From the IMG/VR virus record IMGVR_UViG_2061766007_000638: a DNA stretch of 64,000 bases. One strand, written 5' to 3'. Position 1 is the first letter of the stretch. Every line of letters begins with the position of its first letter. The position numbers and the translations under genes were made by a program. The notes beneath the pieces were generated by a model. That model was not told where the DNA came from, did no database searches, and saw only the letters and a program-made list of their open reading frames with translations. Below, one piece after another: positions 59,017-60,206 of this stretch. Source of the DNA: an uncultured virus (IMG/VR IMGVR_UViG_2061766007_000638) (lineage: Duplodnaviria > Heunggongvirae > Uroviricota > Caudoviricetes).

Positions 59017-59070
59017 TACACTCAATGAGTGTATTTTATTATTGACATTTACACCCGTTGAGTGTATAAT
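59017..59070 (+). promoter_or_regulatory. Consensus promoter with two palindromic operators
   Basis: TTGACA(59042)-17-TATAAT(59065); TACACTCAATGAGTGTA (59017-59033) and TACACCCGTTGAGTGTA (59050-59066). Confidence 0.85.
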
Positions 59071-59119
59071 ATAATCAAGAAGGAAAGGAAAATCCAAAAC
59101 ACCAGAAAGGAATAATATA

Positions 59120-59809
59120 ATGGAAAAATTTGAAGAATATAGAAATTTGTACGAAAAGGCTACACAGGAACGTCCCGACATCTTTAAGATGAACACTGGC
59201 ATAGCAATGATTAAGCATATGTCGTGGTGCGACAAAGACTACACAGTATCTATTAACAGAGTTCTTTCTAAGTTTCCCACAAAAGAGGAGGCTGAGGAAT
59301 TTATCTTTTCCAAGGGCTATATAATTCCTTGCCCAAGCATGTCAGGATACGAGAAAAAATTCATGAATGCTGAAATCAGAGCAGAATATGAAAAAGCACA
59401 ACAAACTATCGAGGAAATCGAAAAAGCAACAGTTGAATTGACAAACATCATTTTCGATATAGTTAAATCGACAGGCAAAAAGACATATATTAGATATGGA
59501 CTGATTCCCGAAAACGGAAAAAGTTACAACTTCAGAGAAAACATTTCAGAGGACGGCGTATCGTGCTTTGAAGCATACAAGCTTGGAAAAGACTACATAA
59601 TAGATATAGCAGGAGGATATTTCACATTTTTGGGATACGCTGGCAGCAAAACAGCTTATGAAATAACTGGCGAGGAGCTATTAGGAAAAGGCAGTGACGG
59701 AGAGCCGTTACTGAAAGATGCGAAAATAATAAAAAAGATAAAAAAAACAAACGGAATCTACGACATAAAAAGTTGGATCCCGACAGTTTTTGAAAAGGAA
59801 GAAAACTGA
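59120..59809 (+). CDS. Accessory protein with a possible ADP-ribosyltransferase-like C-terminal domain
   Basis: AAGGA RBS; YIRYG...GVSCF...GSDGEPLL; function is inference. Confidence 0.55.
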   Translation: MEKFEEYRNLYEKATQERPDIFKMNTGIAMIKHMSWCDKDYTVSINRVLSKFPTKEEAEEFIFSKGYIIPCPSMSGYEKKFMNAEIRAEYEKAQQTIEEIEKATVELTNIIFDIVKSTGKKTYIRYGLIPENGKSYNFRENISEDGVSCFEAYKLGKDYIIDIAGGYFTFLGYAGSKTAYEITGEELLGKGSDGEPLLKDAKIIKKIKKTNGIYDIKSWIPTVFEKEEN

Positions 59810-60159
59810 TGAAAATTAAATATCAAAGATTTAAAGAAATAGTAACAGAAGCAGAAGCACAGCCCGATCAGGCTGTGTTCCTCGCAGAGTACGGGGTTCC
59901 GGAATGGATCCTAACTGAAGTTACAAACGATGAAGAAAAAGCGGTCGAAATGATCAAAAACATACATCATATAACACATATAACAGCAAAAAATCTGATC
60001 ACTGAAAGCGGTATGTCGCAAACAAAATTTGCCGCAAGATTTATGATACCACTACGCACCGTACAAAATTGGTGCGGTGGACAGAGAGCTATGCGAAAAT
60101 ACGAAAAATTCATGTTTGCACTGATTCTCGGTTTTTTCGGTGATTTAAAAATAGTCTAA
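59809..60159 (+). CDS. HTH repressor (Aca-like)
   Basis: GMSQTKFAARFMIPLRTVQNWCGGQR HTH; coupled TGATG junction. Confidence 0.75.
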   Translation: MKIKYQRFKEIVTEAEAQPDQAVFLAEYGVPEWILTEVTNDEEKAVEMIKNIHHITHITAKNLITESGMSQTKFAARFMIPLRTVQNWCGGQRAMRKYEKFMFALILGFFGDLKIV

Positions 60160-60206
60160 AAAACAGCCACACAAACACCAATCAAGGCGATGTGTGGCTG
60201 TTTTTT
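60160..60206. terminator. Bidirectional terminator
   Basis: AAAACAGCCACACA...TGTGTGGCTGTTTT between convergent genes. Confidence 0.8.

Follow-up and report, generated by a model that had tools for sequence, protein, structure and literature searches.

Regulators of the anti-CRISPR-associated (Aca) class are the main handle by which anti-CRISPR (Acr) and other counter-defence genes are found. The described system closest to the locus reported here is the acrIC7-acrIC6-aca10 operon of Pseudomonas citronellolis, in which the last gene encodes the repressor of the operon, the 65-residue helix-turn-helix (HTH) protein Aca10 (7XI5; PMC9410881). There, a palindrome covers the promoter, the proven minimal site is a 19-bp palindrome (ATACGCTCATTGAGCGTAT) with the half-site TACGCTCA, and the residues Q22, Q37 and R44 are needed for DNA binding, as determined by mutagenesis; Aca10 promoters are reported to have a repeat within the core promoter and, in some cases, another similar repeat next to it. 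We analyzed a 64,000-nucleotide stretch of DNA from an uncultured virus of the Caudoviricetes (IMG/VR IMGVR_UViG_2061766007_000638), referred to throughout as the window, and noted in it a two-gene operon (59017-60207, the cassette) that recalls this arrangement, with a 229-amino acid (aa) protein, termed the cargo, encoded ahead of a putative Aca10-like HTH protein of 116 aa and both transcribed from a promoter bearing two palindromes. A first-pass annotation, made from the DNA letters, had taken this operon for an acr-aca locus, and the results below support that reading. The cassette differs from the Aca10 operon in the length of its regulator, which has an additional acidic N-terminal domain, in its occurrence in phages of Firmicutes instead of Pseudomonas, and in a cargo that is no known Acr.

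Other described systems share parts of this layout. Toxin-antitoxin systems of the HigBA2 and MqsRA type have the same toxin-first gene order, an XRE-type HTH protein with the signature RT.Q.W..G.R..P.Y, and autorepression through a palindrome; they differ from the locus described here in that its upstream genes are variable and often multiple, include no RelE- or MqsR-like toxin and lie in a phage setting. The Acr-Aca fusion proteins AcrIIA32, AcrIIA1 and AcrIF24 combine a DNA-binding autorepressor domain and a second domain in one protein, and our regulator is likened to them by architecture, not by sequence. The polyvalent proteins of phages and conjugative elements are proposed to be early-injected conflict effectors (PMC5512222), and the module that makes up the 229-aa protein occurs inside such proteins; in the window this module is free-standing under its own regulator, and it has no match to a Pfam LPD model. 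Finally, Aca12 of Streptococcus phages is likewise the last gene of an acr operon located after the lysis genes, with a palindrome in the promoter. We rejected an identification of our regulator as Aca12, given that the two have different operators and no sequence similarity (BLASTP E 1.7 against the 140-aa ORF57 of phage O1205, whose probable assignment as Aca12 is our own, from a supplementary figure and the stated length).

Anatomy of the promoter, operators and operon

The elements of the cassette are as follows:

59017..59033, no strand: operator O1, a perfect 8-1-8 palindrome, TACACTCA-A-TGAGTGTA (TACACTCAATGAGTGTA), from a palindrome search
59042..59070, plus strand: core promoter, TTGACA (59042-59047), 17-nt spacer, TATAAT (59065-59070), consensus score 12/12
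59050..59066, no strand: operator O2, an imperfect palindrome, TACACCCG-T-TGAGTGTA (TACACCCGTTGAGTGTA), from a palindrome search
59106-59112, plus strand: ribosome-binding site of the cargo gene, AAAGGAA
59120..59809, plus strand: cargo gene, 229 aa, isoelectric point (pI) 5.4
59471..59773, plus strand: conserved C-terminal domain of the cargo, residues 118-218, from the alignment and a model with a predicted local distance difference test score (pLDDT) of 94.3
59809..60159, plus strand: gene for the putative Aca10-like HTH protein, 116 aa
60157..60207, no strand: bidirectional intrinsic terminator common to the HTH gene and the holin gene, from its inverted repeat

The perfect consensus promoter named in the first-pass annotation is present, and it is the sole perfect one among eight promoter-like sites in the region 57600-61200. 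O1 lies immediately 5' of the -35 hexamer, within a weaker promoter-like copy (TTTACA-16-TATTAT, 59015-59042), and O2 lies within the spacer and overlaps the -10 hexamer. The upstream palindrome was correctly described as perfect; its second copy in the spacer does exist, but it is imperfect, with six of the eight arm positions paired. Each of the two operators forms part of a 28-nt direct repeat (59015-59042 and 59048-59075; 79% identical, centers 33 bp apart). The window contains many in-place N masks, and in its unmasked part the palindrome was detected, at up to three mismatches, only as O1 and O2, a count that none of 100 shuffles equaled; extra operator copies, which would be a sign of a wider regulon, were sought across the same unmasked DNA and none was found. 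Neither a structure in the 5' untranslated region (UTR; z 0.34) nor an Rfam family was found.

Translational coupling of the two genes was also confirmed, in that the TGA stop codon of the cargo open reading frame (ORF) and the ATG start codon of the HTH ORF have one base in common. The terminator consists of two 17-nt arms (60157-60173 and 60191-60207) that are 100% complementary and enclose a 17-nt loop, with an A-run before and a T-run after, as expected of the bidirectional element that had been proposed; it overlaps the stop codons of both the HTH gene and the convergent holin gene. The cassette had been further described as lying opposite to the lysis genes. This stands for the convergent holin (PF05105), and the plural does not, because no endolysin adjoins the holin.

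Downstream of the -10 hexamer, many of these operons have a short stretch rich in A (ATAAGATAAAG or AATCAAGA(T)AA), seen in the window (59071-59085) as well as in the loci L011, L016, L027, L030, L164 (phage PH15) and L165 (phage O1205). The operon of O1205 is the unrelated, presumed Aca12 operon.

The regulator and its relationship to Aca10

Of the two domains of the HTH protein, the N-terminal one (residues 1-57) is acidic, with a pI of 5.0, and the HTH domain (residues 58-116; DNA 59980-60156) is basic, with a pI of 10.3. It matches phrog_25567 (E 1.1e-13), a family of unknown function, and in Pfam it obtains sub-threshold HTH matches only. We detected 42 relatives in a large protein collection, which share the conserved core SGMSQTKFAARFMIPLRTVQNWCGGQR.MP.Y.KFM.A. 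For the kinship with Aca regulators that had been put forward earlier, the sequence gives a weak indication: when a profile of 20 family members (A1) was run against 177,635 solved-chain sequences, the best match was Aca10 itself (7xi5_A; E 0.006, 19.9 bits, 32 residues). The residues needed for DNA binding by Aca10 (PMC9410881) align with Q71, Q86 and R93 of the window protein at the same spacing of 15 and 7 residues, and among the 20 family members Q71 and Q86 are invariant and R93 is nearly so.

The operators point in the same direction. O1 differs from the proven Aca10 site by one base per half-site (TACACTCA as against TACGCTCA), and relatives carry the Aca10 site itself: in an Oscillospiraceae genome (L002) the exact ATACGCTCATTGAGCGTAT lies between the two hexamers of a TTGACA-17-TATAAT promoter that precedes an HTH gene of the family, and the loci L016-L023 carry TACGCTCAATGAGCGTA, with the site in L016 again the same as that of Aca10. 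Furthermore, the window shows one operator in the core promoter and a second one nearby, as reported for Aca10 promoters. The likeness to Aca10 rests on the aligned DNA-reading residues together with the near-identical operator, and not on sequence similarity alone. As judged from these features, and with a weak overall sequence link, the protein would be an Aca10-like regulator with an added N-terminal domain. By analogy with the Acr-Aca fusion proteins, this added domain may itself be an inhibitor.

Members of the family in isolated phages extend these observations to Streptococcus. PH15 and Javan242, two phages of Streptococcus gordonii, have the module immediately behind their holin and lysin genes, and its three genes, ORF56-ORF57-ORF58 in PH15 and their counterparts in Javan242, are all annotated as hypothetical. 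ORF58 of PH15 is 27.7% identical to the window HTH protein over 87% of its length, with the N-terminal domain included, and the PH15 promoter (TTGACA-AAGCACGCAATGCGTGC-TATAAT) has the same frame of a palindrome between the two hexamers. These phages differ from the window in that two small cargo genes (104 and 95 aa) replace the 229-aa gene and in that the module is co-directional with the lysis genes. Anti-CRISPR loci of Listeria and Streptococcus phages occupy the same region, after the lysin.

Operator type predicts the regulator family across loci

We then compared 28 loci of the HTH family, including the window, after omission of L001 and L003-L009 (distant or spurious), L017-L023 (same as L016) and L031 and L044 (no ORF). 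In 21 of them a TTGAC[AT] hexamer is followed by a spacer with the palindrome T[AG]C[AG]C...G[CT]G[CT]A and then by a -10 hexamer, and some of those without this frame are contigs truncated on the upstream side (L010, L025). A degenerate 29-bp pattern of the frame was found in at least 115 viral contigs; by our own estimate, made from its information content of about 36 bits and not computed by a tool, a handful would be expected by chance.

The genes downstream were counted for 83 promoter instances in 80 loci, among the matches listed. Where the inner operator is of the CA-N-TG (Aca10) type, a family HTH gene is encoded within 2.5 kb in 27 of the 30 instances that have at least 700 nt downstream, as against a single one of the 49 instances with other inner sequences. 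Operator type thus predicts the regulator family, as expected if the regulator reads that operator.

The 49 instances of the second kind (within L049-L128) have the same TTGACA..TATAAT frame around other inner palindromes, such as TACACATCAAATGTGTA or the partly symmetric TACGCATTGAAGGCGTA, and may belong to sister regulator families on the same promoter scaffold. In L037, L091 and L096/L097 there are two promoter-operator modules each, 380-990 bp apart, which suggests one regulator over two adjacent operons.

Variable cargo between the promoter and the HTH gene

The genes upstream of the HTH homologs are variable, mostly small and mostly of unknown function, as would be anticipated from the acr-aca reading. 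Between zero and five ORFs separate the promoter from the HTH gene, and BLASTP groups the 75 cargo ORFs, a few doubtful ones in high-GC loci included, into about 43 clusters; in L036 no cargo ORF reaches 30 aa. Cargo genes have also been shuffled between loci, with L028 joining relatives of the cargo of L027 and of L026. Only three of 22 cargo proteins tested match PHROGs, two of them partially to HNH-endonuclease families and the third to a family without known function; the pI is below 6 in 15 of 23. A relative of the 229-aa protein occurs in none of the 83 promoter instances in viral contigs (among the matches listed), and the possibility that the homologs always pair with this one gene, which the first-pass annotation had named as a refutation of its reading, is accordingly false.

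Contigs from other samples diverge from the window at 59080-59082, 59113-59116 and 59800, positions that delimit the 5' UTR and the cargo gene, and these breakpoints fit an exchange of cassette contents between conserved flanks. A conserved regulator with variable, mostly small, upstream genes of unknown function in phage contexts is the general hallmark of acr-aca loci, and it is what we observed here.

Two further contigs are natural variants of the cassette: one from an RNA library (run X16) joins 59112, in the 5' UTR, to 60006, halfway into the HTH gene, and in a DNA contig (run X3) the 187 nt of the HTH gene between 59912 and 60100 are replaced by 190 other letters. RNA-library contigs from two further studies hold parts of both genes; as libraries of this kind may also contain DNA, they hint at expression only weakly, and portions of the stretch that such contigs leave uncovered do not indicate silence.

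The 229-aa cargo protein

The cargo protein consists of a small beta/alpha domain at its N terminus, a long helix and, at the C terminus, a conserved domain. Nine close relatives were found. Among 1.84 billion cluster representatives its profile recovered 1024 at E <=0.001, of which 177 reach 1e-10 and 22 reach 1e-30, most of these matches covering the C-terminal domain only (residues about 120-215). Near-invariant positions of this domain are R125, G127, P130, S135, N137, E144, G146, S148, G184, G191, D193, E195 and P196. This constellation resembles an active site, and its conserved polar residues suggest an enzyme.

The entire two-domain module is also found inside proteins of 1142-5074 aa. 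One of these giant proteins bears Kinase-PolyVal and LPD38 domains, others match giant phage PHROGs of unknown function, and the best structural matches of the cargo in BFVD are polyvalent phage proteins (E 1.2e-8 and 2e-5). We considered whether the C-terminal domain could be ART-PolyVal and rejected this, because in the fragment P0168 an ART-PolyVal domain occurs side by side with the cargo module as a separate, adjacent domain.

Searches with other resources gave few leads. In Pfam, at E <=1, only a chance match to DUF1366 and no LPD model was obtained, and PHROGs, NCBIfam and PADLOC yielded nothing informative; the cargo profile drew in nothing among solved-structure sequences, and ESM Atlas gave no lead above chance. 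Foldseek and VIA searches returned nothing above Z 4.8 with the model of the whole cargo (pLDDT 78.8) and nothing above Z 3.4 with that of the C-terminal domain (pLDDT 94.3), for which Foldseek alone had no match. In a comparison of the C-terminal domain with 48,161 representative chains, 34 of which reach Z 2, the best was the ADP-ribosyltransferase Arr (Z 3.4; root-mean-square deviation 4.0 Å over 78 residues). Taken with the R...S.N...E.GVS...GSDGEP pattern, this faint echo of Arr in a model leaves open a minimal NAD-using or nucleotide-modifying enzyme as a possible identity of the domain. The window protein does not match DUF6098 (PF19593); 18 of 121 relatives match it weakly at the last C-terminal hairpin, and only one of them, P0154 (35.7 bits), passes its Pfam cut-off of 27.2 bits. 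No mention of DUF6098 was found in the literature searched. One weak match, in a Burkholderia jumbo phage, was recovered by tblastn with the cargo and none by tblastn with its short relative from L048; a search for longer relatives found two proteins only; and the profile of the cargo domain had no match among 401 genomes from the family to which L002 belongs, in a search that had no positive control.

In viral contigs, an unrelated small HTH_3 gene directly follows the relative of the cargo in two of three distinct loci (L045/L046, 67 aa, and L048, 72 aa; not in L047). Cargo relatives hence also precede small HTH genes, and the association of a payload with a small autoregulator downstream holds from both sides.

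Interpretation of the cassette

We propose that the locus is an acr-aca-type, self-limiting counter-defence cassette of a temperate phage of rumen Firmicutes, and assign this reading a probability of roughly 55%; autorepression, taken as a component on its own, is very probable. In such a cassette the host sigma-70-type RNA polymerase would fire the consensus promoter once the DNA is available and give rise to a burst of bicistronic mRNA for the cargo and the HTH protein, with the overlapping stop and start codons coupling translation such that the HTH protein would be supplied in step with the cargo. The HTH protein would then dimerize and bind both O2, over the spacer and the -10 hexamer, and O1, 33 bp upstream on the same face of the helix, thereby occluding the promoter and shutting off the operon. 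The terminator would end the transcript and insulate the cassette from the convergent holin gene. The cargo would be a replaceable payload, in this instance a free-standing copy of the two-domain module of giant phage proteins, and would act on a host defence or a host process early in infection; we regard it as a promising candidate for a novel factor of this class. The location of the module right behind the lysis genes or convergent with them, in the window, in L028 and in the phages PH15 and Javan242, also favors this reading. A 2026 survey of Aca-regulated operons reports that genes for LPD-domain proteins and PAPS reductases are among their candidates for anti-defence functions, the latter in variable regions of phages, which fits the kinship of the cargo with polyvalent proteins and the PAPS-reductase-like gene in the neighborhood (see below). 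We tentatively consider, at odds well short of even, that the C-terminal domain has a novel fold and represents an enzymatic effector against defence of a type not seen before, used both free-standing and within giant injected proteins, and delivered early under an Aca10-type timer.

Several observations weigh against the counter-defence interpretation. A broader profile (A6), which adds the family members of 57-61 aa, places Aca10 third (E 0.018), behind two uncharacterized XRE-type regulators, 3mlf (E 2.3e-4) and 2ppx (4.6e-4), and also includes HigA2 among its matches (E 0.47); the sequence link to Aca10 is therefore by itself weak, and it is non-specific. With its two domains and 116 aa the HTH protein is also unlike the small, single-domain Aca10. 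For the cargo, no known Acr or anti-defence family was found in Pfam, PHROGs, NCBIfam, PADLOC or solved structures, and its size of 229 aa and enzyme-like conservation set it apart from the typical small, stoichiometric Acr. Lastly, acr genes are reported not always to have Aca-like genes beside them.

An alternative that we regard as improbable, though deserving of weight, is a prophage moron, i.e. a cassette expressed in the lysogen for the benefit of the host or prophage, be it by superinfection exclusion, defence or another kind of conversion, with the HTH protein setting a low steady level. The junction of lysis and integrase genes is the classical site of morons, and the cassettes of L027, which adjoins the integrase gene, and of L028, between the integrase gene and that of a convergent GH25 endolysin, lie there; that of L029 adjoins an apparent 3' part of a tRNA gene, which was read by eye, ARAGORN having called nothing. 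The presence of its own promoter and terminator, the antiparallel orientation to the late genes and a GC content of 37%, below the 43.5% of the neighboring early genes, would likewise suit a moron. However, no PADLOC defence model matches, the operator and HTH protein are of the Aca10 type, a regulator family characterized on anti-CRISPR operons, and the presence of the cargo module within giant phage proteins better fits an offensive than a host-protective role.

Less probable still is a role in host takeover or phage development unconnected with defence, in which the cargo would be an early enzyme that modifies some component of the host or of the phage, timed by the HTH protein. This would account for the enzyme-like conservation of the cargo, its wide distribution in phages, including their giant proteins, and its lack of resemblance to any known inhibitor; nevertheless, one would not expect related phages to exchange a core developmental gene for small, unrelated ones in the same position, an exchange seen in the variable cargo and in the breakpoints at 59080-59082, 59113-59116 and 59800.

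The least likely of these alternatives is a toxin-first toxin-antitoxin pair of the HigBA2 or MqsRA layout, with the 229-aa protein as a toxic enzyme that the HTH protein neutralizes through its N-terminal domain and with autorepression of the operon: its gene order, coupled translation, palindromic operator in the promoter, enzyme-like conserved polar residues in the cargo domain, further cargo relatives preceding small HTH genes, and an HTH protein that resembles HigA2/MqsA-type antitoxins and has antitoxin-like enterobacterial relatives of 96-98 aa (L003-L007) are opposed by the roughly 43 unrelated cargo clusters that the HTH family follows with zero to five genes per operon, by L036 with its lack of a cargo ORF of at least 30 aa, by the little space that family members of 57-61 aa (L037, L039, L041, L091, L099, L072) and the HTH proteins of 67-72 aa leave for a toxin-binding domain, by the membership of the cargo in no known toxin family and in no fixed pairing, and by the perfect consensus promoter. 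It is weakened only, because Aca10 itself resembles HigA2 antitoxins.

The enterobacterial proteins of L003-L007 are HigA/MqsA-like and share an SGLSQTKFA...RNWEQGRR core. The palindrome GTACGTCATTGACGTAC or a close variant is located about 370 bp upstream in L003, L004, L005 and L007 and is not seen in L006. These loci are probably toxin-antitoxin relatives of the same HTH lineage.

Novelty and scope

The logic of the operon is already known. What is novel is an Aca10-type regulator with an N-terminal domain, its presence in phages of Firmicutes, and an enzyme-like payload that belongs to a large uncharacterized family lacking a solved relative. We found this clade described nowhere in the literature searched, which comprised sources other than the supplements of the Aca surveys; the IMG/VR motif searches of the 2026 survey may include it. 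These results widen the range of the Aca10-type regulator and its operator from Pseudomonas to phages of rumen and gut Firmicutes and of Streptococcus. As the 29-bp frame is strongly conserved it can be searched for directly, and the at least 115 viral contigs that contain it, with dozens of unknown cargo families, supply candidates for counter-defence genes in hosts to which current Acr catalogs give little coverage. Moreover, given that the cargo belongs to a large uncharacterized domain family, any function established for it would extend to the annotation of over 1000 protein clusters.

Genomic setting and other features

The window is phage DNA, and the runs that contain the stretch are labeled as bovine or gut metagenomes. 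On PHROG annotation it comprises two phage-like genomes, at 1-44250 on the plus strand and at 44253-64000 on the minus strand, the second of which contains the cassette, antiparallel to its neighbors and with the holin gene to its right. A 393-nt mask (58482-58874) lies directly left of the cassette, and left of this mask is a leftward early block whose first gene encodes a 78-aa HTH_17-like protein (58074-58310). The PAPS-reductase/PP-loop-like gene (56566-57672, minus strand; PF01507 E 9.4e-13; phrog_424) also stands at the start of this block, 1.4 kb left of the cassette. No tRNA gene was found in the window, and blastn of the locus against cultured phages gave no match.

The features that border the cassette are:

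58906..58924, plus strand: two TGTAGTAA 8-mers, 11 bp apart (58906-58913 and 58917-58924), read in the sequence
58942..58984, minus strand: hairpin (perfect stem of 10 bp, loop of 23 nt), then a minus-strand T-run, from an inverted-repeat search and the sequence
60205..60642, minus strand: neighboring holin gene (PF05105 E 3.4e-18; phrog_199)

The direct repeats that had been taken for integrase arm sites are indeed present as two copies of TGTAGTAA, and a pair of 8-mers carries no statistical weight. Leftward transcription may be insulated or terminated at the hairpin.

The first phage-like genome runs from terminase through tail and lysin genes to integrase, repressor and replication genes; its gene order is circularly permuted, and each of its ends carries terminase genes. 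The two genomes have homologous replication modules (primase, helicase, SSB, Holliday-junction resolvase, phrog_1366 and phrog_15609). To the right of the holin gene, at 60675-63449 on the minus strand, there are two to three tandem copies of an adenine-methyltransferase-like gene with a DNPPF motif (phrog_21498), which bear (EREKA)n-type repeats and are interrupted by several 10-nt masks. The C-terminal segment of these genes recurs in a 138-aa ORF adjoining the holin gene.

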